From: Candidatus Magasanikbacteria bacterium GW2011_GWA2_56_11 | Lineage (GTDB): Bacteria; Patescibacteriota; Patescibacteriia; Magasanikbacterales; UBA922 | Assembly (NCBI GenBank): GCA_001004885.1 | Contig: LCRX01000003.1 | Coordinates: 1,650 to 65,649, forward strand | Length of the DNA stretch: 64,000 bases | Direction of reading: 5' to 3' | Shown: one piece after another, positions 1-62,312 of the stretch | How the letters are laid out: the number at the start of each line of letters is the position of its first letter | How positions within the stretch are numbered: the first letter of the stretch is position 1 | The notes under the pieces: generated by a model | Database searches by the model: none | Told to the model about the DNA's origin: nothing | What the model saw: only the letters and a program-made list of their open reading frames with translations | Program-made: the position numbers and the translations under genes

Positions 1-1095
1 GAAAGTGGTATCCCGAAGGACCCAACTTTCATCCAGTGCTCTACCACCGGAGGGATCATACGCAGCTAGCCCAAAAGCTATTTCGAGGAGAACCAGCTAT
101 TACCGAGTTCGATTAGAATTTCTCTCCTATCCACAGCTCATCCCCTTGTGTTGCACAGCAAGTGGGTTCGGACCTCCCCCTGTATCTCTACAGGGCTCAT
201 CCTGGCCATGGATTGCGCACCCGGTTTCGGGTCTACTCATTGCGACTAAACGCCCTTTCAGACTTGGTTTCCCTTCGGCTCCGTCCCAGAAGGACTTAAC
301 CTTGCCGCACCGAGTAACTCGTAGGCTCATTCTTCAATAGGAACACCGTCACCCTTGCAGGCTCCGGCTCATTGTAAGCGCACGGTTTCAGGATCTATTT
401 CACCGCCCTCGCCGGGCTGCTTTTCACCTTTCCCTCGCGGTACTGGTTCACTATCGATCACTGTGAGTATTTAGCCTTAGACCATAGTCGGCCTTGCTTC
501 CGACGAGATTTCTCGTGTCTCGCCGTACTCAAGAACAAGAACGATACTGGGTCTATGTATTTCGTCTACAGGATTATCACCTTCTAAGATGCTCCGTTCC
601 AGGAGTCTTCGACTATACATGGACACGCAATATTCAGTTTTATCAGGAAACTGAAGTTCTTATCTTTCTACACCTGTACTGCAACGGCCTGCCCTTTAAG
701 GCACCGCGTCGAAAAAAGTCAAAGACTCCTTTTTTCGCGATGCCAACACAGTATAGGTTTAGGCTCTTCCCCTTTCGCTCGCCACTACTAAGGGAATCAT
801 GCTCTCACAAATTCCTAATATCTAACTCCAACCCTTGCGGATTGGAAATTAGAAATTAGGAATTGAAAGTGAGGCTTGTCGTATTTTCTTTTCCTCTGGC
901 TACTGAGATGTTTCACTTCACCAGGTTGTCTCCGTATGCCTATGGATTCAGCATACAGTGTTCAATAAAATTGAACGGGTTCCCCCATTGGGAAATCTCC
1001 GGATCAAAGGTTGCTTGCCACCTCCCCGAAGCTTATCGCAGGCTGCTACGTCCTTCTTCGTCTCACAGTGTCAAGGCATCCACCGCGCGCTCTTA
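1..1095 (-). rRNA. rrl: 23S rRNA, 5' portion (partial; continues beyond the window start)
   Basis: Minus-strand sequence matches universally conserved 23S blocks: GGTAATAGCTGGTTCTCCTCGAAATAGCTTT, GGTGGTAGAGCACTGG, GATTCCCTTAGTAGTGGCGAGCGAAAGGGG, GAAGTGAAACATCTCAGTA. The 5' end lies near GGATGCCTTGAC around 1060-1095. Confidence 0.85.
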
Positions 1096-1263
1096 ACACA
1101 CTACAGAAGCACACAATGGTGCTTCCTGAACCTAATTATTGGTTTGGTAAATTGTAATGATCAGTCAGCACGCTCGCTTTGCAGGATTCCTGTCACAGAC
1201 CGAATACCTATTCCTGCTTACGCATCCGGTCTGTAATAAGAACTTTGTCCGCCGCCCCGATTC

Positions 1264-4605: not shown

Positions 4606-4914
4606 CTAATAAACAGCTCTTTCCAAAGCCACAAGACAGGCGGCGCCGTCTTCGCACTCCCAAACTTTTACCAGCGTATGGCCCGGCAACACCCGGTGCG
4701 CTGCCGCGGCGAGCGCGCCGGTGCCGATGCCGTGGACGACCCGGCAATACAGTTTTCCTTCTTTATAAAGCAAAAACAACTCGCGTTCGAGCTGTTCTAT
4801 GGCGGCGGGGATAGTGCCGGCCTGGTGCAGATCAATAACCGCTATATTCGGGTCAAGACGGGCGGCGAGGAGACGGAAATAATTGTCATTCTGAGAATTC
4901 TTCGCTGCGCTCAT
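4606..4914 (-). CDS. Smr-domain protein
   Basis: IDLHQAGT...VVHGIGTGAL resembles the Smr signature IDLHG...IIHGKGTG. Confidence 0.55.
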   Translation of the reverse strand: MSAAKNSQNDNYFRLLAARLDPNIAVIDLHQAGTIPAAIEQLERELFLLYKEGKLYCRVVHGIGTGALAAAAHRVLPGHTLVKVWECEDGAACLVALERAVY

Positions 4915-4980
4915 AGCTTGCCGGGTAGGCGGAGTACAAATTAATTATAATCGGCTCTGCCAGGCTGTCGGCCGGCCATG

Positions 4981-5171: not shown

Positions 5172-6212
5172 TCATGTCTTGGCTGGAGTTCGAGGCGGCT
5201 TTTTCCCCCTGGCTCGAGCCAATCTCTTTATCTCCGCGTCGTACACAAATCTTAATTCATGAGGAGGGACATTACCAATAATCGCCCCCATCTGCCGCAT
5301 GGAAGCAGCATCTATCTCTTGGTCCCTTTTTTGTATTTCCGCCTTTATCGTGTCTTCTTCTTTTCTCTTTCTGGCCATAAATTCGTTGTACACCCGCTCT
5401 CGCGCGGCAGATTTTTTCGCCCTTAATTCTAGCTCCGCGCGTAACCTTTTTGATTTGCCGGATTGTTTAACCCCTTCCCTGCGACCACGGTCTTTATAAC
5501 CGCCAAATTCCATGACCACCTCTTTGCCCATACCCACCGTAGGTACGTTGTAGGGCGAAGAGTCGTCATTATGCTCGGAGTGGATCCAGCCTGATTCTAG
5601 TAGTGATTCGCTTCGGGCCGCCCGGTCCCCTCCCGTTACCGCTCCATGATCCTTCCCTGGTTCTATAGCCGCCGGCTTGATTTCTTGTTCTCCCCTTAGT
5701 CCATCCCCAGATGGTTTAGCCTCAGGAAGAGAATGAACTCCGGGTCGGCGGCCTTCTTCTGGGACAGAATCAACCGGAACTTGAGGATAATCCGAAATGT
5801 AGTCATCGCCTTCGCCGTTGTCTGCCCCCATCTCTTCGCGGTACAATAGTTCCTCTTCAGGGGTCCTTCCGCCATCAGGTAATTGTTCTACCGGCACAAA
5901 ATCGCCGCCGACGCGAGGCTGAAAACTGGCTGCGGCTGTCCGGCCATGCCTGCGGTGTGTTTTTAGCCCTGGCGGATCCCCAATCTTGGGGTTGTCGCTC
6001 GTACCCTTAGGTTCGGCATCACCCCAACTTTCCGCCGGTATATAGCGGCCCGAATCTGCGCGGGCAATTTCGCCAAAAGCATCCTGGCTAGGGTGTATTC
6101 CCAAAGTATCCCGGGAAGGATCCTCGCTCGGAGCTTTTTCAGGCCTGGATCTTTTAGGTGGCTTCCACCCGAACAACCCCCAGGGATTTTCACCTGCCGG
6201 TATACGTCGCAT
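5172..6212 (-). CDS. Hypothetical low-complexity, acidic/charged (likely disordered) protein
   Basis: A 346-aa ORF rich in E/D/G/P/R with a basic C-terminus. No domain was recognised. Confidence 0.4.
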   Translation of the reverse strand: MRRIPAGENPWGLFGWKPPKRSRPEKAPSEDPSRDTLGIHPSQDAFGEIARADSGRYIPAESWGDAEPKGTSDNPKIGDPPGLKTHRRHGRTAAASFQPRVGGDFVPVEQLPDGGRTPEEELLYREEMGADNGEGDDYISDYPQVPVDSVPEEGRRPGVHSLPEAKPSGDGLRGEQEIKPAAIEPGKDHGAVTGGDRAARSESLLESGWIHSEHNDDSSPYNVPTVGMGKEVVMEFGGYKDRGRREGVKQSGKSKRLRAELELRAKKSAARERVYNEFMARKRKEEDTIKAEIQKRDQEIDAASMRQMGAIIGNVPPHELRFVYDAEIKRLARARGKKPPRTPAKT

Positions 6213-6265: not shown

Positions 6266-6294
6266 CCAACAAAAAAGGACCCATCATGGGTCCT
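6266..6294. terminator. Bidirectional hairpin terminator (aaaaaaggaccc-atcat-gggtcctttttt) downstream of pnp
   Basis: A perfect hairpin flanked by an A-run on one side and a T-run on the other. Confidence 0.6.
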
Positions 6295-6300
6295 TTTTTG

Positions 6301-8520
6301 CTACCGATCCCGAAACGGCCGACGCGGGCCGCCGAACGGCTTGCCGCCGCCCGGGCGCGGGCCGCGGTCAAACGTCGGCGGGGTCCAGCCTTCCGGTTTG
6401 GGCTTGAGTTCTTTCATGGTGAGATTGACGCGGCCGAGGTTGTCTATTTCCCTGACCTTGACCTGCACCTTGTCGCCCATCTTGAGCACATCCGACGGAC
6501 GACCGACGCGCTCCCAGGAAATTTCGCTTACATGAACGAGTCCATCCTTGTTGGGAAGAATCTGCACAAAGGCGCCAAAATCCTCAAGGCGCACCACGGT
6601 GCCGTCGTAAATCTCGCCCGGAGCCACCTCTTTGGTCAGGTCCTGCACCATCTTGATGGCGCGCTTCATGCCCTCGCTGTCGTTTGAAGTAATCATCACG
6701 CGGCCGTCCTGCTCGATGTCTATCTGGACGCCAGTCTCGTCAATAATCTTGTTAATAATCTTGCCTCCCGGACCGATCACGTCGCGAATCTTTTCCGGAT
6801 CAATCATAATGGTCTCAATGCGCGGGGCATACGGCGAAAGATCCGGCCGCGGCGCCGGGATAACCTTGGCCATGGCGTCGAGAATTTCGAGGCGGGCGCG
6901 GTAGGCCTGCTCGATAGTCTGCTTCACGATATCCCACGACAGACCCAGGGTCTTGGTGTCCATCTGAACAGCGGTAACGCCGTCGCGCGTGCCGGTGATC
7001 TTGAAGTCCATGCCGCCCGGACCGTCCTCCACGTCCTGCAGGTCGGTCAAAACTTTCCAATTGCCGGCCGTATCCGAGGCCAACCCCATGGCAATGCCGC
7101 CGACCGGTTTTTTGATCGGCACGCCGGCCGCCATCAGGGACAGGGTAGAACCGCAAGTAGAGGCCATCGAACTCGAACCGTTCGAGCCGAGCACCTCGGA
7201 GACGACGCGGATAGCGTACGGAAAATCTATTTCCGGCGGCAAGACCGGTTCCAAAGCGCGCTCGGCAAGCGCGCCGTGGCCGATAGCCCGGCGGCCCGGA
7301 CCGCGCAGCGGCCCGGTTTCGCCGTAGGTGAACGGCGCGTCGTTGTAGTGGTGCATGTAGCGCTTCTTGCCTTCTTCTTCCATCGTGTCAAGCGTCTGCA
7401 CGTCGCCCGGAGCGCCGAGCGTGGTCAGCGAGAGCACTTGCGTGTCGCCGCGCATAAACATAGCCGAGCCGTGCACGCGCGGCGGCAGGGCGTCAACTTC
7501 GATGTTAAGTTCGCGAATCTGCTCCAGGGCGCGGCCGTCCAGGCGCTGCCCGGTCTGCAAAATCCTCTTGGTCACTTCGCGCTGGACATAAAGCTTCACG
7601 TTCTTTAGAACCGGCTTGTAGTTGTCTTCTTCTATGCCCTCTGCGATCAAATGCGTTTTGAGCGCGGCGCTGATTTTCTCGATCATGCCGTAGCGGTCTT
7701 TGCGGTTGATCTTGGGCGAGTCAAAAATCATGGAATCGGCGACACTCGAAACGAACGCGGCGCCGAGTCCGTCTACGCGGCGGGCAAGCTCTTCTTCGTC
7801 CGACTGAGGACCAGCGGGTACGGCATCTTTGACCGTGCCCAAATCGGACTGGATAGTTTTAATGAGGTCAATCACCGGCTGAAGCTGGCTGCAGCCCCAC
7901 TTCATGGCTTCGTACATATCGGTCTCGGCCACTTCGCGCGCGCCGGCCTCGGTCATGATAAGCTTGTCCGGCGTACCGGCCACGACCAGATCCAAGTCCC
8001 CGGTCTGTACCTCTTCGATAGTAGCGTTCAGGATAAACTGGCCGTCTTTGCGGCCGACCCGGGCCGCGGCGATCGGGCCGTTCCAGGGCACCGGAGAAAT
8101 GGCCGCGGCGCAGGAGGCGGCAATAAGAGCCACGATAGCGGCGTCATTCACCCCGTCAACCGACAACGCCGTCAACACCACCTGCACGTCGTTGCGAACA
8201 CGGTCGTCGAACAGCGGACGGATAGCGCGGTCAATCAGGCGCCCGGTAAGGATCGCCTCGTCGCTCGGACGGCCTTCGCGCTTGATAAAACGCGAGCCTT
8301 TGATTTTACCCGCGGCGTAGAGCTTCTCCTCGAAGTCCACCATGAGCGGAAAATAGTCTATCCCGTCGCGGATATTGCCGCTTTTGACGATAGTGGCCAG
8401 AATCACGGTGTCCCCATAGCGGACAGTGCATGATCCTTGCGCCTGAAGCGCGAGCTTGCCTACCTCGATTTCGAGTTTACGGCCGGCCCAATCCACCGAC
8501 CACTGACGAATGTTCAACAT
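6301..8520 (-). CDS. pnp: Polynucleotide phosphorylase (PNPase), with a C-terminal S1 domain and a Gly/Arg-rich tail
   Basis: The N-terminus MLNIRQWSVDWAGRKLEIEVGKLALQAQGS and the domain order (two RNase PH-like domains, KH, S1) are typical of PNPase. Confidence 0.9.
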   Translation of the reverse strand: MLNIRQWSVDWAGRKLEIEVGKLALQAQGSCTVRYGDTVILATIVKSGNIRDGIDYFPLMVDFEEKLYAAGKIKGSRFIKREGRPSDEAILTGRLIDRAIRPLFDDRVRNDVQVVLTALSVDGVNDAAIVALIAASCAAAISPVPWNGPIAAARVGRKDGQFILNATIEEVQTGDLDLVVAGTPDKLIMTEAGAREVAETDMYEAMKWGCSQLQPVIDLIKTIQSDLGTVKDAVPAGPQSDEEELARRVDGLGAAFVSSVADSMIFDSPKINRKDRYGMIEKISAALKTHLIAEGIEEDNYKPVLKNVKLYVQREVTKRILQTGQRLDGRALEQIRELNIEVDALPPRVHGSAMFMRGDTQVLSLTTLGAPGDVQTLDTMEEEGKKRYMHHYNDAPFTYGETGPLRGPGRRAIGHGALAERALEPVLPPEIDFPYAIRVVSEVLGSNGSSSMASTCGSTLSLMAAGVPIKKPVGGIAMGLASDTAGNWKVLTDLQDVEDGPGGMDFKITGTRDGVTAVQMDTKTLGLSWDIVKQTIEQAYRARLEILDAMAKVIPAPRPDLSPYAPRIETIMIDPEKIRDVIGPGGKIINKIIDETGVQIDIEQDGRVMITSNDSEGMKRAIKMVQDLTKEVAPGEIYDGTVVRLEDFGAFVQILPNKDGLVHVSEISWERVGRPSDVLKMGDKVQVKVREIDNLGRVNLTMKELKPKPEGWTPPTFDRGPRPGGGKPFGGPRRPFRDR

Positions 8521-8639
8521 AATTGTACTCCTCGCGCTGATCAAGAAGCGATAGATCCCCAAGGGACCTAGATGTCTCCCGACCAGCGAATTAATAAATT
8601 TAATTAGTTTAAGTTAGAAACTTAATAAGATTTTACCCC

Positions 8640-8751
8640 TAGTAGCGGCGGGGATAAGCCGTTTTCATTCCGCCAGCTGTCTGAGCTGTAAAGCAAGCGA
8701 GTTCTGCCGGAATTAAAACGGGTTATCCCCGCCGCTACGCCCCGGCCGGAG
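8640..8751. repeat. About 110-nt structured inverted-repeat element, copy 1 (long hairpin with a conserved 28-nt loop)
   Basis: tagtaGCGGCGGGGataaGCCGttttcattccgccagCTGTCTGAGCTGTAAAGCAAGCGAGTTctgccggaattaaaaCGGGttatCCCCGCCGCtacgcc. A second copy lies at 12066-12169. Confidence 0.6.
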
Positions 8752-8801
8752 CACTCCAGCTATCATCAAAACGCAAACTATAGACGATAGCGCAAAAACT
8801 C

Positions 8802-9371
8802 CTACTGCGAAGCAGCTCCCCGCTTCAATTCCCGCCTCCGGTCAACAATCAAAAATTTCTCTTTGTCCCGGCCCAGATCAAGAAAATCGTCCGCGGCCTC
8901 GATAAGCCGGCCGGAAGTAGTGCCGCCGAAAGCGGCCACCTCGACCTGTTTGCCCATGCTCTGAAGATAATCCACCAGCGGCAGATAGTCGCCGTCGCCC
9001 GAGACAATCACGATGGCGTCTAGGCTGGGCGCGAGCCGGATAGCGTCAACCGCGAGCCCCACGTCCCAGTCGGCCTTTTTAAGGCCCGTGGAAAAAATCT
9101 GCAAATCCTTTTCGCGCGTTTCAATGCCAAGATTATACAGCGCCTCGAAAAAAGGCTGCTCTTCTTTGGACTCGGTCCGGACCACGTAGGCTATAGAGCG
9201 AATCAGCTTGCGGTTCAAAACCGACTCTTTAACGATGTTGCCAAAATTCACTTTCATGCCGAAAAGATTTTTGGCCGAATAGTAGAGATTCTGTACATCA
9301 ATAAACACCCCAACACGTTGGTCGGGGTGCTTGAGCGGATGTCTGGTACTATCTTTCAGGTTCGGGCTCAT
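8802..9371 (-). CDS. NYN-domain (LabA/DUF88-like) protein, predicted ribonuclease
   Basis: VGVFIDVQNLYYS...IVIVSGDGDYLPLV matches the NYN fold signature. Confidence 0.65.
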   Translation of the reverse strand: MSPNLKDSTRHPLKHPDQRVGVFIDVQNLYYSAKNLFGMKVNFGNIVKESVLNRKLIRSIAYVVRTESKEEQPFFEALYNLGIETREKDLQIFSTGLKKADWDVGLAVDAIRLAPSLDAIVIVSGDGDYLPLVDYLQSMGKQVEVAAFGGTTSGRLIEAADDFLDLGRDKEKFLIVDRRRELKRGAASQ

Positions 9372-9696
9372 GAGATTCCTCGATTAGATCGGCGTCATCT
9401 TCTTTTTCTGCCGCGGTCTCGAACTGCTTGGCCTGCTTAAGTTTGAGTTTCTTGACCAGATCCTCGTACGAGGCGGCGTTCTCGCGCTGCAGATAGCGCA
9501 GCAGGCGGCGGCGTTCGCCGACCTTGCGCAACAGACCGCGGCGGGAAGAGTGATCCTTGGCGTGAGCCTTGAGGTGGCCCACCAACTCGTCAATTTCCGC
9601 GGTCAGAATAGCGATCTGGACCTCGGTCGACCCAGTGTCGCCTTTGTGGGTCTGGTACTTCTTGATGACGTTCAACTTTTTTTGCTTGGTCAGCAT
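9349..9696 (-). CDS. rpsO: 30S ribosomal protein S15, with an acidic C-terminal extension of about 25 aa
   Basis: GDTGSTEVQIAILTAEI...HSSRRGLLRKVGERRRLLRYL is the S15 signature. Confidence 0.85.
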   Translation of the reverse strand: MLTKQKKLNVIKKYQTHKGDTGSTEVQIAILTAEIDELVGHLKAHAKDHSSRRGLLRKVGERRRLLRYLQRENAASYEDLVKKLKLKQAKQFETAAEKEDDADLIEESHEPEPER

Positions 9697-9836
9697 ACAT
9701 GCATGGTATTATCGAGCGGGGGCGGGGCATGTCCCGCGGCCGTCCGGACCCGACCGAGTCGGGATTAGTAGATGGGATGATTATACCAGGAGAGGCCGAT
9801 TATGTCAAGGTATCACCGAGGAATCGAGGCTGAATC

Positions 9837-10370
9837 TCAACCCGACCTTGGACTACGCCGGGATCGTTTCAGAGCCTGGGTAAAAGGCAAATTGGCTCCG
9901 GCGGCCAGGGCCACGGCGAGAGCGTCGGCCGCGTCGTCTTGCAGCCGCCCGGGCTTGAGGCCCAGGATAACTTTGACCATGTACTGCAGCTGGCTCTTTT
10001 CGGCGCGGCCATAGCCGGTCAGCGACTTTTTTATCTCAAGCGGCGTAAATTCCTCAATCGGCAGCCCGGCTTCGGAGAGCGTCAGGAGCACGACGCCGCG
10101 CGCCTGGCCGACCTCAATGGCGGTGGTAACATTTTTGTAAAAAAATAACTCCTCCACGGACGCCGACGCCGGCCGGTATTTCTGGATAATTTTAACTAAA
10201 TCGTCGCGGATCTCGCACAGACGCTCCGCAAAAGAAAGCTCGGCCGACGTTTCTATCAGCCCGTATACCACCGCCCGCCAGGCGCCGTTTCTTTGTTCGA
10301 TTATCCCATAGCCCAGCCGGCCGAAGCCGGGGTCAATTCCCAATATCCGCTGAGTTTTATTTCTTTTCAT
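9837..10370 (-). CDS. ruvC: Holliday junction resolvase RuvC
   Basis: ILGIDPGFGRLGYGI...DAADALAVAL matches the RuvC catalytic motifs. Confidence 0.85.
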   Translation of the reverse strand: MKRNKTQRILGIDPGFGRLGYGIIEQRNGAWRAVVYGLIETSAELSFAERLCEIRDDLVKIIQKYRPASASVEELFFYKNVTTAIEVGQARGVVLLTLSEAGLPIEEFTPLEIKKSLTGYGRAEKSQLQYMVKVILGLKPGRLQDDAADALAVALAAGANLPFTQALKRSRRSPRSG

Positions 10371-10384
10371 ACGAATACCAGACG

Positions 10385-11119
10385 TTAGACTTCATTCGTG
10401 TACACCGCCCGCACGTCGTCGTGGTCTTCGAGCGCGCCGTAAAGCCCCGCCGCCTGCTCGCTCCCGGCCTCGTCTGCCGAAACCCTGTCTTTGGGTAGCC
10501 ATTCCAATCCCGACTCTTCCGGCTCGATGCCGAACCGCTCCACGGTATGCAAAACCGGCTGGAACTTATCCACGGCGCAAATAATCTCCCACCCGAGCTC
10601 GCTCACAACGATATCCTCAGCGCCCGCGTCAATCACCGCGAGTTCAAACTCCGGCTCTCGGTCTTTGATTTTAGGCCTCTGGCTCTCGCCGACCCGCACC
10701 ACCGCGCGCCGTTCGAATTGCCACTGCACGCTGCCCGGACCGGCGACGCTGCCGCCATGCTTGGTAAAAATATTTTTTACCTCGCCGGCCGAACGATTGC
10801 GGTTGTCGGTCACGACTTCAACCAAAAAAGCGATGCCGCCCGGGCCGAAACCCTCATACAAAAGCTCCTCCAGCGCGGCCTCGTCTCCAAGCTCGCCAGT
10901 ACCTCGTTTTATAGCCCGATCTATATTATCTTTGGGTAAATTGGCGGCCTTGGCTTTTTCGATCGCGAGGCGCAGGGAAAAATTCATTTCCGGGTTGCCG
11001 CCGCCTTCTTTGGCGGCGATGGTAATCAAACGCGCCAGCTTGGTAAAAGCGCTGCCTTTTAGTTTGTCCTGCTTGCCCTTGCGGACCTGGATATTGTGCC
11101 ATTTCGAGTGCCGGGCCAT
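10385..11119 (-). CDS. yebC: YebC/PmpR-family transcriptional regulator
   Basis: MARHSKWHNIQVRKGKQDKLKGSAFTKLARLI is the YebC N-terminal signature. Confidence 0.85.
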   Translation of the reverse strand: MARHSKWHNIQVRKGKQDKLKGSAFTKLARLITIAAKEGGGNPEMNFSLRLAIEKAKAANLPKDNIDRAIKRGTGELGDEAALEELLYEGFGPGGIAFLVEVVTDNRNRSAGEVKNIFTKHGGSVAGPGSVQWQFERRAVVRVGESQRPKIKDREPEFELAVIDAGAEDIVVSELGWEIICAVDKFQPVLHTVERFGIEPEESGLEWLPKDRVSADEAGSEQAAGLYGALEDHDDVRAVYTNEV

Positions 11120-11262
11120 ATAGTTAAGAGCCGTGAAAAAGACTGTAAAAACTCAGGAAATGAGCGGCTCAACCGGCAAATCCGGTAAGCCACCGACGAC
11201 CTCACAGCCCTACATTATAGTATTTATTGCCAAAAATCAACGCTGCGGCACCTTATTTGCCG

Positions 11263-11913
11263 CTACTCGGACAACGGCCGGCTTATCTGCTCGATAGTTT
11301 TCGCTTCCGATAATCTGTACGGTCCGATTCTGGTGCGAACCAAAGCCGCCGCGTACGCCCCCGCACCCAAATCCTGCCCGATATCGTGAACCAAACTTCT
11401 AATATACGTCCCGGAGCTGCAAACCACCCGCAGGCGGGCCGAATCAGGAGCGCACTCCAAAATTTCCAGCTCAAAAATCGTCACCGTCTGCGGCCGGCGC
11501 TCGATTTCTGCTCCCTGCCGCGCCAGTTCGTATAATTTTTTCCCGCCTACCTTTTTGGCCGAAAACATCGGCGGAACTTGTTCAATGACACCGCGATATT
11601 TTGGTAAAATTTTTTCCAGTTCTTCCTTGGCCACCGGCCGCGCCAAGGGATGGGGAGCGATGACGCCATCGCAATCGTAGGAGTCGCTCACAAAGCCGAA
11701 CTTCATCGCCACCTCGTATTCCTTTTCCAGCCGTTTGAATTCATCCAACCGTTTCGTCGCCTCGCGGCCCACGCCCACGATTAGCAACCCCATGGCAAAC
11801 GGATCAAGCGTGCCCGCGTGGCCAATCTTTTTTTCGCGCAAAATACCGCGGAGTTTGGCCACCACGTCATGCGAGGTCCAGCCGACCGGCTTATTCACCA
11901 AAAGAAAAGGCAT
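11263..11913 (-). CDS. truB: tRNA pseudouridine(55) synthase TruB
   Basis: [46 protein letters not shown] is the TruB signature. The internal Met MPFLLVNKP was chosen as the start. Confidence 0.8.
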
Positions 11914-12002
11914 ACAAAAAGTAAAACTTAGCCCACGGCCGGCCGCTAACTCCGGCCGAAGGAAAGGAGATCCAAGCAAGAACAGTCTGTAATACAGCAA
12001 AG

Positions 12003-12040
12003 CTCCCCCGCTTGGGCGGGGGAGCTGGCAATACGCCTAA
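12003..12040 (-). terminator. GC-rich hairpin (gctcccccgc-ttgg-gcgggggagc) downstream of rpoC on the minus strand
   Basis: A perfect 10-bp stem, followed on the minus strand by ttgctgtatt. Confidence 0.4.
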
Positions 12041-12065
12041 AAGCCAACAAACACTGTTGAACTCA

Positions 12066-12169
12066 TAGTAACCGGGCGGTATAACTCATTTTAATTCCGC
12101 CAGCTGTCTGAGCTGCGTAGCAAGCGAGTTCTGCCGGAATTAAAATGAGTTATACCGCCCGGTTACGCC
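12066..12169. repeat. Structured inverted-repeat element, copy 2 (same conserved core as 8640-8751, different but self-complementary outer stem)
   Basis: tagtaACCGGGCGGtataaCTCAttttaattccgccagCTGTCTGAGCTGCGTAGCAAGCGAGTTctgccggaattaaaaTGAGttataCCGCCCGGTtacgcc. Confidence 0.6.
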
Positions 12170-12183
12170 TTTGCCGTAGCAGA

Positions 12184-15100
12184 CTATTCCTGTGCCGGAG
12201 CCCCCTCAGTATCAACTTCAGCTTCAGACACAAACCCCGTCCCCGCCGGAATCAAACGGCCGATGATAACGTTCTCTTTGAGACCTTCCAAGTAGTCCAC
12301 CTTGCCGGTGATAGCGGCGCTGACCAAAACCCGCGAGGTTTCCTGGAACGAAGCGGCCGAAAGGAAACTCTGCGTGGTCAAAGCGACCTTGCTGATGCCC
12401 AAAAGAAGTTCGCGCCCTTTTGCCGGCTTACGGCCGGCACTTTGGGCCTGGGCATTGGCCACCATCAACTGCGCTTTTTCAATAATTTCTCCGGGCAACA
12501 GGTCCGAGTCGCCCGATTCTTCCACGTAAACGCGGCTAAACATCTGCTTGATAATGATCTCGACGTGCTTGTCGTTCAGGCGCTGCCCTTGGGCGGCGTA
12601 AATTTCCTGTATTTCGGTCAAAATATAGCGCTGCACCGCATCCCGGCCCCTGAGCTCGTAGAGCTCGTTGAGGTCAATGCTGCCTTCCGTCAGCTGGTCG
12701 CCGCGCTCTACCTCGTCGCCGTCTTTCACCCAGAGCTTGTAGCCGATCGGGATGATATACTCTTTTACGCTCTTGCCTTCATAGACCAGAATCACCTTGT
12801 CGCCTTCGTGCCTAATAGTGCCATTGTACTTGGCCAGGACCTCTTCACCCGAAGAACCGCGGATCAGAAGACAATCGTCTTTTTTTACTTTGTCTCCGTC
12901 ATGGGCTTTGATCTCGTCCTCTCCGCTCACTTCAAAAGTCATTTCCTCTTGGCCTTCATGGTGTACCTGGATAATCTTCTGGCCGCGGCGGCCTTCAAAA
13001 ATCTTACGTCCGGTAGGACTCGTGATAACCTTGCCGTCCGCGTCCTCGATCTCCACCTTGCCGGAAACTTCGGACAAGACAGCTTTGCGTTTCGGCAGTC
13101 GCGATTCGAACAGCTCCTCCACGCGCGGCAGACCCTGGGTAATGTCGCCGCCGGCCACGCCGCCTAAGTGGAAAGTACGCATTGTCAACTGCGTGCCCGG
13201 CTCACCGATGGATTGCGCCGCGATAACTCCGGCGGCCACCCCAGGCTTGATTACTTCATTGTGCGCCAGGTCGTAACCGTAACATTTAACGCACACGCCC
13301 TTGGGCAACAGACACTGAAGAACGGACCGGACATGAACCGTATCAATGCCGGCCTGTTCAATCTGGCGGACGGCTTCGGCCGTTACCACGCCGCCTTCTT
13401 TGACGATAGTCTTGCGACCGTCCTTTACGGCCGAGATGACAAAACGTCCCAAAACTCTGTCCGTCAGTTTCTCACCCATCTGTTCCGATTCGTCCTTAGT
13501 GAAAATTTCACCCGTCGTGTCGCCGCAATCCTCAAACTTGACAATGACATCCTGCGCCACATCCACCAAGCGGCGGGTGAGGTAACCGGCGTTAGCCGTG
13601 CGCAGAGCCGTGTCCGAGAGACCCTTACGGGTGCCGTGCGAGGAAATAAAGAACTCGATGACGTCAAAGCCTTCTTTGAAGTTGCCCTTCACCGGCAGCT
13701 CGATAATCTCACCGCTCGGCGAGGCCACGAGGCCCTTCATGGCGATTACCTGCCCGAGTTGCGCCCAGCTGCCGCGGGCGCCGGAATCGATCATGGCAAA
13801 CACCGAGTCATTCTTATCCAGGGCGTCCTTGGTGTGCGCCAGCATGCGTTCTTTGACTTCGGTCCAAATCTCCAGCACTTTGGCGTGCCGTTCGGCATCC
13901 GTCAAAAGGCCCTGCTGGTACTGGTCCTCCACGATTTCGACGCGCTTAGCGCCCTCGTCGAGCAAAACCGGCTTGTCGGGAATTTCCGGAAACTGGTTCT
14001 TACCCAGCGAATAACCGGACTTGGTCACGTATTTGTACCCTAGATTTTTTATCTCATCGAGCATCTTGGCGGTCGTCTCTTGGCCGTAAAATTCCAATAA
14101 AAGCTGAATAATGGCCGACAGGTGCTTTTTGGTAATGGTCTCATTGTAGTACGGAATCCGGACCGGAAGAATTTCATTGAAGAAAACGCGGCCGATAGAC
14201 GTTTCGATAATTGTGCCCGTACCTTCGGGGAATTTGGACAAATCAGTGAAGCGGACTTTGATGCGCTCTTTGAGGCTGATTACCCGCGTCTTGTACGCGT
14301 ACTTGGCTTCGGTGATATTGGCGAAAAACCTCTTCACCTCGCCGGTGTCGCGGTCGTCGTATTTAGTCAGGTAATAACAGCCGAGGGCGATGTCTTGCTG
14401 CGGCGTAATTACCGGAGCGCCGGTGGCCGGCTTGAGCAAGTTTTTCTCCGACGCCATCAAATGCTCGGCCTCCCACTTGGCCTGTTCCGACAGTGGCAGG
14501 TGGACCGCCATTTGGTCGCCGTCAAAGTCAGCGTTAAAAGCGGCGCAGACGAGCGGGTGAAGACGGATGGCTTTGCCCTCTACCAGCCGCGGCCGAAAAG
14601 CCTGGATACCGAGCCGGTGCAGGGTGGGCGCGCGATTGAGCAGGACACGCGTGCTTTTGGTCAAATTTTCCAAGATATCCCACACCTCCGGAGCATTGCT
14701 TTCGATAAACCGCGAAGCGCTGCGGACATTGTGGGCCAGTTCACGCTTGATAATCTCGGCCATGACGAACGGTTTAAAAAGTTCGAGCGCCATAATTTTG
14801 GGCAAGCCGCACTCGTCGATATTGAGCTTGGGGCCTACCACGATAACCGACCGGCCGGAGTAGTCTACCCGCTTGCCCAGCAGATTCTGGCGGAAACGCC
14901 CCTGTTTGCCTTTGAGGATGTCGGCGAGAGAGCGCAGCTGACGTTTTTGTCCGGTCGAGGCGCGCACAGTCTTGGTGGCGCGGGCATTATTGTCGATAAG
15001 AGCGTCGACTGCTTCCTGCAGCATGCGTTTTTCATTGCGGCAGATCACCTCCGGCGCGTTAAGCTCCAACAGGCGCCGCAGACGGTTGTTGCGGTTGATC

Positions 15101-27886: not shown

Positions 27887-28007
27887 AACTACCGCGACTG
27901 GCTTTTGATCTGATATTGTATGCGGGCAGACGCGAGTTCCTGGCCCAGATAGCCGGGTTTGCCCGCGAGGAGATTGATTTTGAGTAACTGCTCCGGCCTT
28001 CGAACTT

Positions 28008-28052
28008 GGGATTATAAATGAGCCGGCTATTAGCTGGCTCATTTATAATCCC
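28008..28052 (+). promoter_or_regulatory. 20-bp-stem hairpin in the rpsD 5' leader (candidate S4 autoregulatory structure, or flippase terminator)
   Basis: gggattataaatgagccggc-tatta-gctggctcatttataatccc, about 100 nt upstream of the rpsD ATG, with no T-tract. Confidence 0.3.
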
Positions 28053-28152
28053 AACGGCTGGATCTTGCCAGCCGGAGGGCAAACTACGCCCCAGATTGAA
28101 ATCCGGTGCCGCCAAACCGTATACTGGATATATACCTTCATTACTTGTCATT

Positions 28153-38981: not shown

Positions 38982-39035
38982 AAGACTCGTTTCCATTCAT
39001 GAATGGGAAGCCGTTACTACTCGCAGAAGCTAAAT

Positions 39036-39085
39036 ACTAACACCGCCCGGCCGGGCGGTGTTAGTATTTAGCTTCCTCCCTTGCC
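39036..39085. repeat. Perfect 50-bp palindrome (25+25, no spacer), preceded by a perfect 14-bp palindrome ccattcatgaatgg at 39002-39015
   Basis: gaagctaaatactaacaccgcccgg|ccgggcggtgttagtatttagcttc, with no T-tract on either side. Confidence 0.7.
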
Positions 39086-40425: not shown

Positions 40426-41379
40426 GTGTACACTCGTGTAAATTACGATTCCTCTATGCCGTGGATTAGCATCATTATTATCGTCGGTCTTATCGTCTTT
40501 GAGACCGTAAGCAGCGTTGACAACGCCATAGTCAACGCCCATATGCTGCGCACCATGAGCGAACGGGCGCGGCGCTGGTTCCTGCTTTGGGGTCTATTCT
40601 TTGCCGTTTTTCTGGCCCGGGGCATCCTACCGCTCCTGATCGTCTGGCTTACGGCTCCGAACGTAACTCTGCTCGGGGCCCTGCGGGCCACCTTTGGGGG
40701 CGACGATTTGGCCCGGCAGGCCATAGAGCAGAGCTCGTTCATCCTCTTGATCGGCGGCGGGATGTTCCTGCTCCTACTCTATCTCCACTGGCTATTTCTC
40801 GAAAAAAAAGAACCGTACTTCGTGCCGGATAAATGGGTAAAAGAACACCACGGAGTTTGGTTCTTCGCCTTGTCCGCGATTCTATTGGTTACTATTCTCT
40901 ACCTCACGCGCCACTCTCCCCTGGCTATGATTGCGGCGGCCACCGGAAACGCGGTCTTTTTTATTCTCTACGGCTTCCGCGAACTGGCGGAAAAAGAAGA
41001 GGCCAAACTGGAGCGTACCGGGCGATCGGATATTTCAAAATTCTTATACCTGGAGGTACTTGATCTGTCGTTTAGCATCGACGGCATCTTTGGCGCCTTT
41101 GCCTTTACGACCAATATTCTTCTCATTTTTATCGGCAATGGCATTGGAGCGTTTGTGGTACGCGAACTCACCATCAGGGGCATAAACCAAGTGGCCAAAT
41201 ACCGCTGGCTAAAAAACGGCGCCATGACTTCGATCGGTTTCTTGGGAGTCTTTATGATACTGGAATCACTCGGCGCGCACATACCGGAGTGGCTGCCCAC
41301 TGTTATTACCTGCGGATTGGTCGGCATTACCTTCTGGTCTTCGCACCGGCATCTGAAAAAAGCCTCTGACAGCGACTAA
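40426..41379 (+). CDS. TerC/DUF475-family integral membrane protein
   Basis: SSVDNAIVNA motif, polytopic membrane protein. Confidence 0.6.
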   Translation: MYTRVNYDSSMPWISIIIIVGLIVFETVSSVDNAIVNAHMLRTMSERARRWFLLWGLFFAVFLARGILPLLIVWLTAPNVTLLGALRATFGGDDLARQAIEQSSFILLIGGGMFLLLLYLHWLFLEKKEPYFVPDKWVKEHHGVWFFALSAILLVTILYLTRHSPLAMIAAATGNAVFFILYGFRELAEKEEAKLERTGRSDISKFLYLEVLDLSFSIDGIFGAFAFTTNILLIFIGNGIGAFVVRELTIRGINQVAKYRWLKNGAMTSIGFLGVFMILESLGAHIPEWLPTVITCGLVGITFWSSHRHLKKASDSD

Positions 41380-41405
41380 AAAAGAGGCTTACCGCCTCTT
41401 TTTTA
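41378..41405. terminator. Bidirectional terminator (aaaaaa-gaggc-ttacc-gcctc-ttttt)
   Basis: A hairpin flanked by an A-run and a T-run. Confidence 0.65.
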
Positions 41406-41416
41406 GTCGCCAATTT

Positions 41417-55408: not shown

Positions 55409-56212
55409 ATGTCGGTTATGTCCAGAAAATATCTGGTGGCCTACGCCAACGGCCTGTCTAGCGCTTTTCAATACCGGCTCAACCTGGGGCTGTTGTTTGT
55501 CAGCCATCTGGTTAGCCTTTCGGGCCTGGTCTATCTTTGGCTAGCCGTTTACGCCGCCGGCGAGAGCCTGCCCGGCTACTCTTTGCCGGAAATAATTACC
55601 TACTACCTGGTGCTCACGGCTCTGCGCATTACCATAGCCGACGGGATCGGAATGGGGTTCAAAGTATCCGAAGATATTCGGGAAGGCCTGATTACCCATT
55701 ACCTCTTGAAGCCTTTCAGCTATTCTCTGGAACAAGGTCTGCTGCTCGCCGCCCAGGCCAGCATCAACCTGGTCTTTGCCTTGCCCCCGTTCATTATTTT
55801 GGGATTATTCATAAACCGGTTTATCGAGCTGCCCGACCTTGGCGATATCGCGGCTTTTGCGCTGCTGACGTTAATCGGCCTGATCTTTTATTACCTAGTT
55901 TATTTATTATCAGCTTTCTCGTCTTTTTGGATCGAAAAAGGCAGCACCGCTATCTATGCCATGATTGTCGTCAGCCTGCTCCTCAGCGGTTCGCTCCTGC
56001 CTTTGGATCTTTTTCCGGACTGGTTCCAAACCGCGAGCCGGTACGCGCCCTTTCAGTATCTCATGTACGTGCCGATCCAGGGATTCTTAGGCCAGATCAC
56101 CGACTGGAGCCGGACGCTGGCGGTTGCCGCAGTCTGGATAGTCCTTTTGGCGGCGGCAGCCCGGACCGTCTGGCTCCGGGGCCTCAAAAAATACGAAGCT
56201 GCCGGCCGGTAA
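55409..56212 (+). CDS. ABC-2-type-permease-like 6-TM protein, paralog 1 (type A, ends ...KKYEAAGR)
   Basis: About 260 aa. It is homologous to the next five ORFs, with N-terminus ...AFQYRLNLGLLFVSHL and C-terminus W...LRGLKKYE. Confidence 0.6.
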   Translation: MSVMSRKYLVAYANGLSSAFQYRLNLGLLFVSHLVSLSGLVYLWLAVYAAGESLPGYSLPEIITYYLVLTALRITIADGIGMGFKVSEDIREGLITHYLLKPFSYSLEQGLLLAAQASINLVFALPPFIILGLFINRFIELPDLGDIAAFALLTLIGLIFYYLVYLLSAFSSFWIEKGSTAIYAMIVVSLLLSGSLLPLDLFPDWFQTASRYAPFQYLMYVPIQGFLGQITDWSRTLAVAAVWIVLLAAAARTVWLRGLKKYEAAGR

Positions 56213-56215
56213 ATT

Positions 56216-57001
56216 ATGAAATACTTTTCTCTCTATCTCGCGTTCTTCCGGGCGAACTTGATGAAAGACATGGCCTACCGGGGCAACTTTCTTTTAGGCT
56301 CCTTGACTACGGCCCTGGAGTCGCTCATGGTCTATTTCGGCGTGGCGGTTCTTTTCCGCCACGTTACGACCATCGCGCAGTGGACCTATGAAGAGATGCT
56401 CATTCTCCTCGGGGTCTACATGATCAGCAACAGCGCGGCCTGGCTGCTCTTCCGGGCGGGCGTGTCCGATCTGGACCGGACAATTAACCGGGGCGACCTC
56501 GATTGGTACCTGGTCAAGCCGATCGATGCCCAATTCCTCTCCACCGTTACCCGCATAGATATAGAAGACGCGGCGCGCTCGCTGGTCGGATTGGTGCTGG
56601 TCGGTTTGGGCCTCTATCGAGGCACGGCCGAGGTAAGTTTCTGGAGACTTTTAGCCTTTGTCATCACTTTTCTGGCCGGCCAGGCGATCCTCTATAGCAT
56701 CCAGCTCGCTCTCAAAACCGTCAGCTTCAAATCGCTCCAGGGCTGGGCCACCAACAGCATCGCTTTCCGCTTTCACGATCTGGCGCAATACCCGACGGAT
56801 ATTTACCGCGGCCTCATGCGCGTCGTCTACACGTTCGTTTTGCCGCTCGCCTTCATCGCCACCGTGCCGGCCAAGGCGCTGATCGGCGAGATCACCGCCG
56901 GACTTTTCGCCCTCTCGCTCCTCATCGCCGCGGCCGCTCTGGCCATCACCCGCCTGATCTGGAAACGGGCGCTGCGGACTTATACGAGCGCGTCGAGTTA
57001 G
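56216..57001 (+). CDS. ABC-2-type-permease-like protein, paralog 2 (type B, ends ...RTYTSASS)
   Basis: Starts 3 nt after paralog 1, and carries the B-type C-terminus YTSASS. Confidence 0.6.
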   Translation: MKYFSLYLAFFRANLMKDMAYRGNFLLGSLTTALESLMVYFGVAVLFRHVTTIAQWTYEEMLILLGVYMISNSAAWLLFRAGVSDLDRTINRGDLDWYLVKPIDAQFLSTVTRIDIEDAARSLVGLVLVGLGLYRGTAEVSFWRLLAFVITFLAGQAILYSIQLALKTVSFKSLQGWATNSIAFRFHDLAQYPTDIYRGLMRVVYTFVLPLAFIATVPAKALIGEITAGLFALSLLIAAAALAITRLIWKRALRTYTSASS

Positions 57002-57150
57002 AGCCCACTCCAAAAATAATTCGGAGCCGGTTTTGAGCGAAAAATGTCCGGGTTGAAGTAGGCATAATGGTATTATGGCGACGAAACCCCGGAAATTTTT
57101 CGCTCAAAACCGGCTCGAAAATGAGCCAGAATTATTTTTGGGAGTGGGCT
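57002..57150. repeat. About 150-bp imperfect inverted repeat (45-57-nt arms flanking a 48-nt centre with a nested palindrome cataat-ggt-attatg), filling the gap between permease pairs 1-2 and 3-4
   Basis: agcccactccaaaaataattcggagccggttttgagcgaaaaat ... atttttcgctcaaaaccggctc[gaaaatgagccag]aattatttttgggagtgggct. Confidence 0.6.
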
Positions 57151-57157
57151 AAATAGT

Positions 57158-58734: not shown

Positions 58735-58896
58735 AACTTACTTCAAAATGAGGTCATCTCTGGCAAGCGGGGCCGGCAGATTAAATTTTGAGCTCCGAGG
58801 ACGAGTGCGAGAGCGAAGCGGGTATCCCTCCGCAGGAGCTCGTCCCGCGAGCTCACCTACCGGCTCGATTTCGCGCTCGGGCGCCTGCGCCACCTG

Positions 58897-59598: not shown

Positions 59599-59599
59599 T

Positions 59600-61313: not shown

Positions 61314-61346
61314 AGTTTTTATGATCACCAATACCACCAAGGAAAG

Positions 61347-61356
61347 CCCCCCCCCC
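61347..61356. repeat. C10 (G10 on the other strand) homopolymer tract in the 83-bp divergent RT/avd intergenic region
   Basis: ggaaagCCCCCCCCCCtcagc. Confidence 0.8.
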
Positions 61357-61396
61357 TCAGCAATTTTTACGAACAGGTTCTTCTCAGGTAGATGAA

Positions 61397-61726: not shown

Positions 61727-61741
61727 ATGACCGAATACAGC

Positions 61742-61772
61742 GAAGCCTCGACGTATGTGTCGAGGCTTCTTT
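61742..61772 (+). terminator. Perfect 11-bp-stem hairpin (gaagcctcgac-gtatgt-gtcgaggcttc) between avd and the TR; a weak avd terminator and/or the 3' flank of the TR on the other strand
   Basis: A perfect inverted repeat, with only 3 T residues after it on the + strand. Confidence 0.4.
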
Positions 61773-61787
61773 AGGCTATAGGCACTT

Positions 61788-62236: not shown

Positions 62237-62312
62237 GAAATGGTGGGTGTCCAAGGGACCAAGTGACCAAGGGTCCTTGATCCAAGGGACAAGTGAGACA
62301 AGAGAACGAGGG

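Follow-up and report, generated by a model that had tools for sequence, protein, structure and literature searches.

A hairpin-forming intergenic repeat with a near-identical apex and copy-specific arms in an uncultured groundwater Magasanikbacteria genome

An uncultured groundwater member of the Magasanikbacteria (CPR), Candidatus Magasanikbacteria bacterium GW2011_GWA2_5x (locus-tag prefix UY92), carries a hairpin-forming repeat of about 100 nt in at least four copies (A, B, C, and D), all of which lie between genes. The apex of the hairpin is near-identical in the four copies and its base is different in each. We give about even odds (a probability of roughly 0.5) to the reading that this is a lineage-restricted family of dispersed palindromic DNA repeats, of the REP/REPIN/ERIC/RPE/Correia kind, which is co-transcribed as a stable intercistronic hairpin. 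The repeat would then be an unusual member of an already known class, the bacterial intergenic palindromic repeats. The class-level properties were found: the repeat is short, non-coding, dispersed, extragenic, hairpin-forming and located just 3' of genes. It fits the class only loosely, however, because its conservation is reversed; to our knowledge, the known palindromic repeat families have conserved ends and a variable interior. The origin of the copy-specific arms is the only really unusual aspect of the repeat.

Copies A and B lie inside the window, the 64,000-nt stretch of DNA that was analysed, and about 96 kb of the host genome was sampled for the whole family. Copy D is on the window's own scaffold, about 4.7 kb beyond the window end, and copy C is on a separate contig which most likely comes from the same species. 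The first-pass annotation had described two elements, at 8640-8751 and 12066-12169, and had proposed a search for further copies. Its placement was correct, with the arms located at 8642-8738 and 12068-12166, and the finding of C and D makes this a real repeated family. The window contains a 38-nt core pattern exactly twice, and 100 dinucleotide shuffles did not produce it once. The cores of A-D are near-identical, agreeing at 52-56 of 57 positions; the sampled host sequence (about 96 kb) gave no solo or partial apical module. The number of copies known in the roughly 96 kb sampled, four, speaks against the palindromic-repeat reading.

Copy A, including a flanking TA and GCC that it has in common with copy B, spans 8640..8741, and its sense (transcribed) strand is the minus strand. 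Its copy-specific left basal arm (8642..8661, GTAGCGGCGGGGATAAGCCG) pairs, with one mismatch, with the right basal arm (8719..8738, CGGGTTATCCCCGCCGCTAC). Inside these are the conserved left inner arm (8662..8676, TTTTcATTCCGCCAG), which contains the position of a family-wide C.C mismatch, the conserved right inner arm (8704..8718, CTGCCGGAATTAAAA), and a conserved, asymmetric centre of 27 nt (8677..8703, CTGTCTGAGCTG-TAA-AGCAAGCGAGTT) whose hypervariable triplet (8689-8691) falls in a predicted apical tetraloop. Copy B (12066..12169 with the flanking TA and GCC, minus strand) is built in the same way. Its copy-specific basal arms (12068..12088, GTAACCGGGCGGTATAACTCA, and 12146..12166, TGAGTTATACCGCCCGGTTAC) pair perfectly, its conserved inner arms are at 12089..12103 (TTTTAATTCCGCCAG) and 12131..12145 (CTGCCGGAATTAAAA), and its conserved 27-nt centre at 12104..12130 has the variable triplet CGT at 12116-12118. 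As inverted repeats, the arms of A (8642-8676/8704-8738) are 35 nt long and 91% complementary and those of B (12068-12103/12131-12166) are 36 nt long and 97% complementary, with 27 nt between them in both cases.

The inner stem and loop had been called near-identical between A and B, and the 57-nt apical module indeed differs only at three apical nucleotides and one stem position. The loop, given earlier as 28 nt, is a centre of 27 nt in which three nucleotides differ (TAA in A, CGT in B). Perfect self-complementarity, claimed for both copies, holds for the basal arms of B; A has two copy-specific mismatches, and the C.C mismatch (G.G on the opposite strand) is conserved in the inner stem of every copy. 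Nor are the outer arms of A and B completely different, as had been stated: they have a common frame, TAGTA...ATAA / TTAT...TACGCC, and 9 of 15 positions match in an ungapped alignment. Fully unrelated outer arms emerge only once C and D join the comparison. The common outer ends of A and B (TAGTA / TACGCC) are neatly explained neither by insertion into unrelated palindromes nor by free divergence.

Across the family, the conserved apical module measures 57-69 bp per copy and consists of 15-bp inverted arms (TTTTnATTCCGCCAG / CTGCCGGAATnAAAA) with a fixed mismatch and a fixed asymmetric 27-nt centre, and its outer edge is a fading AAC-YCR / YGR-GTT collar. Beneath the module is a copy-specific basal stem of 20-29 bp, almost perfectly Watson-Crick, to which copy C adds 9 further bp beyond a bulge. 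In C and D the basal arms, of 22-29 nt, again show no sequence relationship, and their complementarity is almost perfect. Apart from A versus B, the outer 15-24 bp of the arms are similar between copies only at chance level. The predicted helix is 35-46 bp long, with folding energies of -64 to -69 kcal/mol on either strand (z-scores -6.7 to -12), and neither strand gives a more stable hairpin than the other. Both the G.G/C.C mismatch, which is fixed, and the asymmetric centre, which is invariant, hint at a specific ligand that the palindromic-repeat model leaves unnamed.

The covariation of the arms had been read as selection on structure. Pairing is clearly kept, through two-sided changes at 17 of 34 stem pairs (a level reached by 0 of 500 shuffles), and 97.8% of the 136 cells are paired. 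That this covariation implies selection on an RNA structure is not supported. The changes are almost all from one Watson-Crick pair to another (29 double-change cells vs. one G.U). Basal arm lengths are 20, 21, 22, and 29 nt, and each difference is mirrored on the opposite arm. The core is about 1-2% divergent outside the apical triplet, whereas the arms are unalignable. B and D differ by one SNP within 67 nt, beyond which their similarity is at chance level, and the sharing of its derived state by B and D in one strain points to gene conversion. Taken together, these features are the pattern of a DNA palindrome rather than that of a slowly co-evolving RNA helix, and we found no good evidence for a new structured RNA gene. 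The basal arms, without homology between copies, may have evolved or originated independently at the DNA level. One arm could have been copied from the other by template switching or fold-back synthesis, or the module could have been inserted at the dyad of palindromes already present.

All four copies are intergenic, 4-63 nt past a stop codon, with co-directional neighbour genes, and 4 of 4 point the same way with respect to transcription. The NYN stop codon (8802-8804) is followed after 63 nt by copy A, which in turn precedes the pnp leader; between the rpoC stop codon (12184-12186) and copy B there are 17 nt, and the rpoC terminator and truB come after the copy. The gene orders reported before, rpoC-[B]-truB and NYN-[A]-pnp with every gene on the minus strand, are right. 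The four junctions occupied are rpoC/truB, NYN/pnp, grpE/hsp20, and ABC ATPase/AI-2E permease. Judged by their position in operon-like gene strings, A-D are very probably co-transcribed with their neighbour genes. Copy D and its flanking genes are inverted on the chromosome while the sign of the GC skew is unchanged; thus the orientation of the element follows transcription, not replication. The 5' leader of pnp has a small hairpin of its own (UAGGUCC-n5-GGAUCUA, 8552..8570, minus strand). Because relatives without the repeat also conserve this hairpin, it is context and not a part of the repeat.

A role as terminator or attenuator, one of the functions proposed at first, is not supported by the sequence downstream of the hairpins. 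None of the copies has a U-tract after the hairpin, with no T-run within 9 nt downstream on the sense strand in A-D, and a terminator scan called none at A or B. Moreover, B is trailed 41 nt later by a separate canonical terminator, a GC-rich hairpin read from the sequence as AGCTCCCCCGC-ccaa-GCGGGGGAGCT followed by TTGCTGTATT (12001..12026, minus strand). It is likely the intrinsic terminator of rpoBC, and its sub-threshold Rfam matches are to the terminator ends of RsmY/istR. B would thus sit within the rpoC 3' UTR and not itself be the terminator. No outward promoters were detected.

In a polycistronic mRNA each copy would fold into a hairpin of 35-46 bp with about -65 kcal/mol. By analogy, it would most likely act post-transcriptionally, by being cut by RNase III and/or by blocking 3'-5' exonucleases, and the hairpin would uncouple the stability of the upstream cistron from that of the downstream cistron at each of the four junctions. 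RNase III hairpins call for at least about 20 bp of near-perfect double-stranded RNA in the transcript; the predicted helix has this length, in a region whose transcription is deduced from gene order. The hairpin is probably an RNase III site or an exonuclease barrier.

A dedicated cis-acting structured RNA for processing, stability or attenuation, with true compensatory evolution of the helix and the 27-nt apex as a protein- or RNA-binding platform, is a possible but doubtful alternative. The single orientation relative to transcription would suit such an element, as would the mismatch conserved in every inner stem. The only three hypervariable nucleotides of the centre coincide with the tetraloop predicted at the apex, which an invariant GCU/AGC stem closes, and the family's single wobble is G.U on the sense strand and C.A if read on the opposite strand. 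Copy A lies within the rpsO-NYN-pnp unit, and in E. coli an RNase III hairpin at the equivalent position controls pnp. However, one G.U in 136 cells is very few: by our estimate, which assumes about 7% G.U, at most one among some 80 variable-stem cells has P of about 0.02. The length differences are compensated on both arms, and no bacterial RNA motif known needs a perfect duplex nearly as long as 35-46 bp. Core identity is about 99% and the arms are saturated, yet the family is missing from the nearest relatives; the age read from the stems contradicts the age read from the distribution. Gene conversion offers another cause for the identity of the core. Finally, there was no Rfam match. As the first-pass annotation had asked to be checked, no family in Rfam release 15 matches A or B at gathering thresholds, and at E<=10 only generic long-hairpin miRNA models appear, with 24-35 bits against thresholds of 70-95.

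The distribution of the family agrees with the lineage restriction in the palindromic-repeat reading. The core pattern is absent from GTDB species representatives and from viral contigs. By fuzzy matching and a covariance model, the repeat is absent from 1.43 Mb of more than 80 related Magasanikbacteria, and it is absent from the closest relatives despite conserved synteny. The small non-autonomous mobile element that had been suggested is a plausible candidate. Comparison with IS/MITE ends gave no recognisable match. In the sequence, no consistent direct repeat flanks the whole hairpin as a target-site duplication; the 57-nt module is flanked by inverted rather than direct repeats. No empty site was found in any strain-level contig covering a copy, and no transposase, RAYT or recombinase among the scanned ORFs and gene tables (about 96 kb).

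These results bear on an unlikely variant of the mobile-element idea, in which the 57-69-bp apex is a tiny non-autonomous transposable module that integrates at the dyad of pre-existing long palindromes, so that the variable arms are old host hairpins. Possible empty targets exist: the host has long perfect palindromes, spacer-less or with a short loop and with arms of 15-25 bp, at 28006-28054, 39026-39075, 41372-41410, and 6268-6302, and others in contigs L092 and L003. The abrupt end of the B-D identity also fits insertion, and in one relative (L088) the equivalent NYN-pnp position is occupied by an unrelated hairpin with arms of about 24 nt. But the ordinary palindromes of this genome are bidirectional terminators of the A-run / GC-rich apex / T-run type, and the arms of A-D are unlike them, those of A and B being GC-rich at the base and AT-rich beside the module. 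A and B have outer ends and an internal ATAA frame in common, and the boundary of the module is fuzzy, with decaying identity in the AAC-YCR collar. The lack of target-site duplications, of a transposase and of solo or partial modules in about 96 kb, and of empty-site polymorphism in the strain-level contigs covering a copy, also argues against insertion.

Strain variation gave a glimpse of how the cores may be kept alike. In a variant strain (contig L097), position 12097 of copy B is changed from C to G, as in copy D. Apart from this case, the derived ATTGCGCC state is confined to D; the window's B, like A and C, has C at the position. B and D of the variant strain are thereby identical across 67 nt. 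The shared derived SNP, read from this one strain, indicates gene conversion, by which the apical modules may be kept near-identical between copies. In another contig, L091, the left arm of B continues into the right arm of D, and the ABC-transporter/DGR region comes to lie beside truB; an inversion between these two oppositely oriented copies would give exactly this order. Together with the architecture, two inverted 15-bp arms flanking an asymmetric centre, this could mean that the copies are substrates of a site- or structure-specific recombinase that makes programmed inversions, for example of the 56-kb B-D segment. We consider this very improbable. Independent assemblies of the same strain type keep the parental junctions (rpoC-B-truB in L097, ABC-D-AI-2E in L099), and L091 can be explained as an assembly chimera because B and D are identical over 67 nt in that strain. 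A spacer of 27 nt is also far too long for the core sites of tyrosine or serine recombinases, and there is no recombinase gene nearby.

Several known systems resemble the repeat in part. Like TIGR-Tas systems, it occurs in CPR/parasitic bacteria and has palindromic stems that vary from unit to unit (PMC12045711). TIGR units are tandem, with box C/D motifs, variable loop spacers and an adjoining Nop-domain Tas gene (PMC12045711). That such systems with variable palindromic stems are known from CPR bacteria, and that A and B have variable blocks of 9-10 nt within a conserved frame, could be taken to mean that the copy-specific stems are addresses of guide-RNA-like hairpins (TIGR-like, or siRNA-like duplexes released by RNase III) against phage or host nucleic acids. 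This idea is barely credible. The copies occur singly at scattered sites and not as tandem arrays. TIGR spacers are located in the loop, but in the repeat the loop does not vary, and the parts that do vary are wholly self-paired. Searches of IMG/VR viral contigs with the four arms gave no match, and their matches elsewhere in the sampled genome are chance 11-12-mers only. With no Nop-domain (Tas) gene in the gene tables either, the repeat was not assigned to TIGR-Tas.

Integron attC sites are likewise imperfect palindromes of about 60-140 nt whose structure is conserved over sequence and whose strands are made unequal by fixed positions that are mismatched or extrahelical. Their outer R''/R' boxes (RYYYAAC / GTTRRRY) are conserved, their centre is variable, and they stand in cassette arrays beside intI. 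In the repeat GTT is followed by ATC, ATA or CAG, which do not fit RRRY; with this misfit, single copies dispersed among housekeeping genes and no integrase seen, it does not match an attC site. IS1397 and ISKpn1 insert in the loops of REP palindromic units and are full-length IS3-family elements with transposase and target duplications. Targeted insertion of this sort into hairpin loops would place a conserved sequence at the centre of palindromes that are otherwise unrelated. The insert would here be only 57-69 bp, without coding capacity, and in arms unlike the ordinary palindromes of the host.

The palindromic-repeat reading finds its closest relatives among REPs, REPINs and Correia elements. 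REP/REPIN sequences with RAYT (PMC3116915, PMC3337134) are likewise short non-coding sequences scattered between genes, and they form a long hairpin as single-stranded DNA or mRNA; compensatory arm changes and lineage restriction are common to both. Mobilisation by RAYT transposases has been proposed for the hairpin-forming REPINs with their compensatory changes (PMC3116915), and for REPs gene conversion is a long-standing suspicion (Higgins et al. 1988, as cited in PMC3116915). The topology is inverted, however: in a REPIN the ends are invariant (16-mers within each REP) and the apical spacer varies, whereas our repeat has an invariant apex and a copy-specific base. Since its termini are copy-specific and its interior is invariant, the repeat does not match the REP/REPIN layout. 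It also differs in that a GTAG-type REP head is inconsistent (GTAG in A, GTAA in B, neither in C and D), no RAYT gene was seen in the roughly 96 kb examined, and copy number is apparently low, 4 in that sequence.

Correia elements duplicate a TA target. The repeat has neither conserved terminal inverted repeats nor a flanking direct duplication and thus does not match a MITE of this type; Correia elements (CREE/NEMIS of Neisseria) have conserved 26-bp terminal inverted repeats, whereas the termini of the repeat differ per copy. By eye, its 27-nt centre has no recognisable IHF-like consensus, in contrast to Correia elements. The likeness lies in a length of about 100-150 bp, in inverted repeats around a conserved core, and in co-transcription with neighbour genes, which for our repeat is deduced from position. 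RNase III binds or cleaves the Correia RNA hairpin and this alters the expression of adjacent genes (PMC2649163), which is the functional analogy that we propose for the repeat.

Hairpin repeats lie at both places where the first-pass annotation had put a structured element. Copy A (8640-8741, minus strand) occupies the gap between the NYN gene and pnp, and copy B (12066-12169, minus strand) that between rpoC and truB. An inverted-repeat search resolved A into 35-nt arms (8642-8676/8704-8738) and B into 36-nt arms (12068-12103/12131-12166), each pair enclosing a centre of 27 nt, not the 28 nt claimed earlier. The 38-nt core CCAGCTGTCTGAGCTGnnnAGCAAGCGAGTTCTGCCGG has exactly two matches in the window, and none arose in 100 shuffles. 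Folding energies of A and B on either strand were -64 to -69 kcal/mol, with z-scores of -6.7 to -12. The perfect self-complementarity ascribed to each copy was overstated: A carries two private mismatches, and a fixed C.C mismatch (G.G on the other strand) is present in the inner stem of all copies. Likewise, the outer arms of A and B, described as completely different, have the frame TAGTA...ATAA in common.

On the sense strand the repeat reads basal arm, a semi-conserved AAC-YCR collar, TTTTnATTCCGGCAG, AACTCGCTTGCT-nnn-CAGCTCAGACAG, CTGGCGGAATnAAAA, collar' and basal arm'. The apical module of 57 nt is identical between copies at 52 to 56 positions, and nearly all of its variation falls in the central triplet and in one stem pair: B and D have A-U there, C has U-A, and A has a mismatch. 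In the RNAalifold prediction the triplet belongs to an apical tetraloop with an invariant GCU/AGC closing stem. Inspected by eye, the 27-nt centre shows neither an IHF consensus nor a hammerhead core nor a sigma-70 promoter. The basal arms are 20, 21, 22 or 29 nt long and unrelated in sequence between copies. Beyond about 5 bp outside the module their similarity is that of chance, except between A and B.

Copies C and D were found outside the window; the family is represented by the pattern TTTTNATTCCGCCAGCTGTCTGAGCTGNNNAGCAAGCGAGTTCTGCCGGAATNAAAA and the covariance model R1. Among JGI metagenome contigs, a scan recovered a single genuine further copy, C, besides three chance matches within coding sequence; the collection scanned was incomplete, and a JGI contig carrying A and B (L086) was missed. 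Copy C is located at 6764-6886 of contig L003, between grpE and hsp20 in an hrcA-grpE-hsp20-dnaK string. Its locus recurs in sample ERZ28563808, where a strain of the window's organism is present too, and L003 has the G+C content of the window (55.2%) and a second repeat family in common with it. Thus, C most likely comes from the same species. The second family (window 57003-57150; L003 4076-4237 and about 11359-11402) is unrelated and has a classic MITE architecture, with conserved terminal inverted repeats of about 30 bp (AGAgCCCACTCCcAAAAATAATTCcG...) around a variable interior, the opposite of the apex-conserved pattern of the hairpin repeat. One of its copies has the 10-mer GCCGGAATTA in common with the right arm of the module, which may be chance. 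A hybrid contig, L091, led to the prediction of another copy on the window's own scaffold, and copy D was then found on the extending contig L092 at 4864-4978 (about 68.7 kb in window coordinates), where the stop codon of an ABC ATPase gene precedes the repeat by 4 nt and an AI-2E permease gene lies downstream. Each basal arm of D is 29 nt long, and the two pair without a mismatch.

The first-pass annotation had suggested a search for further copies and a comparison with Rfam. The former yielded C and D but nothing in related genomes, and the latter nothing matching the repeat, either at gathering thresholds or at E<=10. No additional copy was present in a further 9.5 kb of the window's scaffold. 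The GTDB species representatives had no match to the core pattern, and viral contigs had none to the whole core or to each half separately. No copy was present in eighty Magasanikbacteria pnp loci or in the three closest TruB relatives, which have the same synteny, whether up to 10 mismatches were allowed or the covariance model was used. A repeat search of the closest relatives found no analogous families, and the literature searched describes no repeat of this kind.

The window is 100% identical to a 97.8-kb ENA scaffold (ANAN16-1_SAMN03202995 scaffold_466; window x = record x - 190) of a groundwater MAG with locus tags UY92. The gene order, all on the minus strand, is rpoB, rpoC, copy B, truB, yebC, ruvC, rpsO, NYN, copy A, pnp. 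Copy B lies 17 nt past the rpoC stop codon, and 41 nt beyond it stands a distinct hairpin, GC-rich and followed by a T-rich tail, which is likely the rpoBC terminator. Copy A lies 63 nt past the NYN stop codon. A perfect sigma-70-type promoter precedes rpsO, so A most likely lies inside an rpsO-NYN-pnp transcript. Downstream of A is a small pnp 5' leader hairpin, CAUCUAGGUCC-n4/5-GGAUCUAUCGC (window 8552-8570, minus strand; about 6017-6040 and 6462-6485 in the relatives' contigs L088 and L090). This hairpin is kept across Magasanikbacteria, including relatives without the repeat, with no other intergenic sequence in common; it is not in Rfam and might serve as a signal for PNPase autoregulation or for processing. 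In all four copies of the repeat a stop codon precedes the hairpin by 4-63 nt, and the orientation relative to the co-directional flanking genes is the same. Since D is inverted on the chromosome along with its genes while the sign of the GC skew is unchanged there, the orientation tracks transcription and not replication.

A terminator role had been among those proposed, and no U-tract occurs at any of the four copies; therefore the repeats are not canonical terminators. The real terminators of this genome are long hairpins with an A-run, a GC stem and a T-run. When co-transcribed, a helix of 35-46 bp offers RNase III a textbook substrate and impedes 3' exonucleases; by analogy the repeat hairpin may act in both ways. 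Correia elements provide a precedent for such hairpins (PMC2649163). A TIGR-like or guide-like role, considered after a literature match to TIGR-Tas, was excluded: the loop is invariant, the copies are single and dispersed, no Tas gene was found in the window and its extensions, and the arms had no matches in viral contigs or the sampled genome. CPR/Patescibacteria genomes are small and regarded as repeat-poor. A hairpin family in core operons (rpoBC-truB, rpsO-pnp, hrcA-grpE-dnaK) is a potential handle on the processing of CPR polycistronic mRNA.

The view of the repeat as a covarying element stood in that pairing is kept by two-sided changes, seen in 17 of 34 pairs; 97.8% of stem cells are paired, none of 500 shuffles scored as high, and slid registers collapse. 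Selection on an RNA is not what the pattern indicates. Double changes number 29, and G.U occurs once; arms that differ in length between copies do so on both sides; either strand forms an equally good helix; and the arms are saturated around a module about 99% identical, yet the family is absent from the nearest relatives. On these features the covariation is that of DNA palindromes. Palindromic DNA repeats can thus yield strong "compensatory" statistics without RNA-level selection, a caution for covariation-based discovery of ncRNAs.

In the variant strain represented by L097, copy B has the derived ATTGCGCC state, elsewhere specific to D; A, C and the window's B have a C nucleotide there. 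Gene conversion between copies 56 kb apart is the simplest explanation. Concerted evolution of this kind can hold the module uniform without strong functional constraint, and the basal arms, which have no homology, escape it. On a small scale, the family cleanly illustrates how gene conversion can make dispersed copies evolve in concert. We also considered that the repeat is a programmed inversion site, since L091 (ENA ERZ28563808 scaffold_879) at 9748-9844 joins half of B to half of D and places the DGR/ABC-transporter region next to truB. This explanation is weakened by L097 and L099, which have both parental junctions in the same strain type, and by the 67-nt identity of B and D in that type, enough for an assembly chimera. 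L091 is either a chimera through the identical module or a 56-kb inversion polymorphism. In assembly, 67 identical nucleotides suffice for a chimeric or inverted join.

Paired arms could arise or persist if one arm was copied from the other, if the module was inserted into pre-existing palindromes, or if selection acted on the hairpin. Targeted insertion into palindromes would fit the "empty" long palindromes of this genome and the abrupt boundary of the similarity between B and D, which have the triplet and five further base pairs in common and are a single SNP apart. However, the arms are not built like the genome's ordinary palindromes; A and B have their ends in common (the outermost bases and the unpaired flanks TA/GCC); and no target-site duplication, transposase or empty-site or presence/absence polymorphism was found, the strain-level contigs spanning a copy (L001, L086, L091, L093-L095, L097, L099 and L100) all carrying the elements. 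The sampled sequence contains neither empty TAGTA...TACGCC palindromes nor solo module halves. A spacer-like origin of the arms was rejected, as they matched nothing in viral contigs or elsewhere in the sampled genome. With arms of 15-25 bp, the ordinary intergenic hairpins are unusually long; they are near-perfect, and they often have no spacer (window 6268-6302, 28006-28054, 39026-39075 and 41372-41410; L092 381-415 and 3690-3736; L003 2146-2188). Most consist of an A-run, GC stem and T-run, and they look like bidirectional terminators with extended stems.

As for copying of one arm from the other, the apical module might itself generate the palindrome, as a hairpin that is mobile or recombinogenic. 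Following its integration, or a break, snap-back priming on the module hairpin would copy one flank to the other side, giving an inverted target duplication of 16-30 bp, unique to each copy. Arms so made would be Watson-Crick-perfect, length-matched and mutually unrelated. In a variant, the invariant 27-nt apex would be the binding site of a putative CPR protein that uses the hairpins as intercistronic RNA-processing modules. That either of these two proposals holds is unlikely; either, if true, would be considerably more interesting, and fold-back copying would be a way for repeats to spread and palindromes to form that is undescribed for bacterial mobile elements.

No partner gene (transposase, RAYT, integrase or Nop/Tas) was found in the window and its extensions. 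The sole reverse transcriptase there, about 50 kb from A and B, belongs to a diversity-generating retroelement (DGR; 60555-63242) with an RT ORF (RVT_1; 60555-61490, minus) and bAvd (61397-61726, plus). Two direct repeats of 118 nt with 82% identity (61784-61901 and 62318-62435) are likely its template and variable regions, since one is at the 3' end of the target gene (62313-63242, minus; 309 aa, no Pfam match). Six consecutive paralogous ABC-2-type membrane protein genes (PF06182) lie at 55409-60382 on the plus strand, according to the L092 gene table. At 1-1106 (minus), the 5' part of the 23S rRNA gene covers model positions 1-946 over 1106 nt, and the excess of about 160 nt may be an insertion; insertions are often reported in CPR rRNA genes. 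A 27-nt in-frame indel at 5561-5587, in an ORF without Pfam match (5172-6212), makes its product 346 aa in the window and 337 aa in JGI Ga0209211_10007209. Beyond the window end, ribonucleotide reductase is split into two ORFs of 182 and 1015 aa on the window's scaffold (L098 11599-15169) and is one 1184-aa ORF in the variant strain (L099 11599-15153), which points to a frameshift or assembly error.

By kind, the repeat is a bacterial intergenic palindromic repeat. It lacks the invariant ends and variable spacer of REPINs, the conserved terminal repeats and target duplication of MITEs and Correia elements, the R boxes of attC sites, the tandem array and Tas gene of TIGR systems, and the U-tract of intrinsic terminators. 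An invariant apex over a private base is unusual, with no described precedent among the families compared, and is the reverse of REPINs and MITEs; this reversed architecture poses the mechanistic question of the origin of the matched arms.
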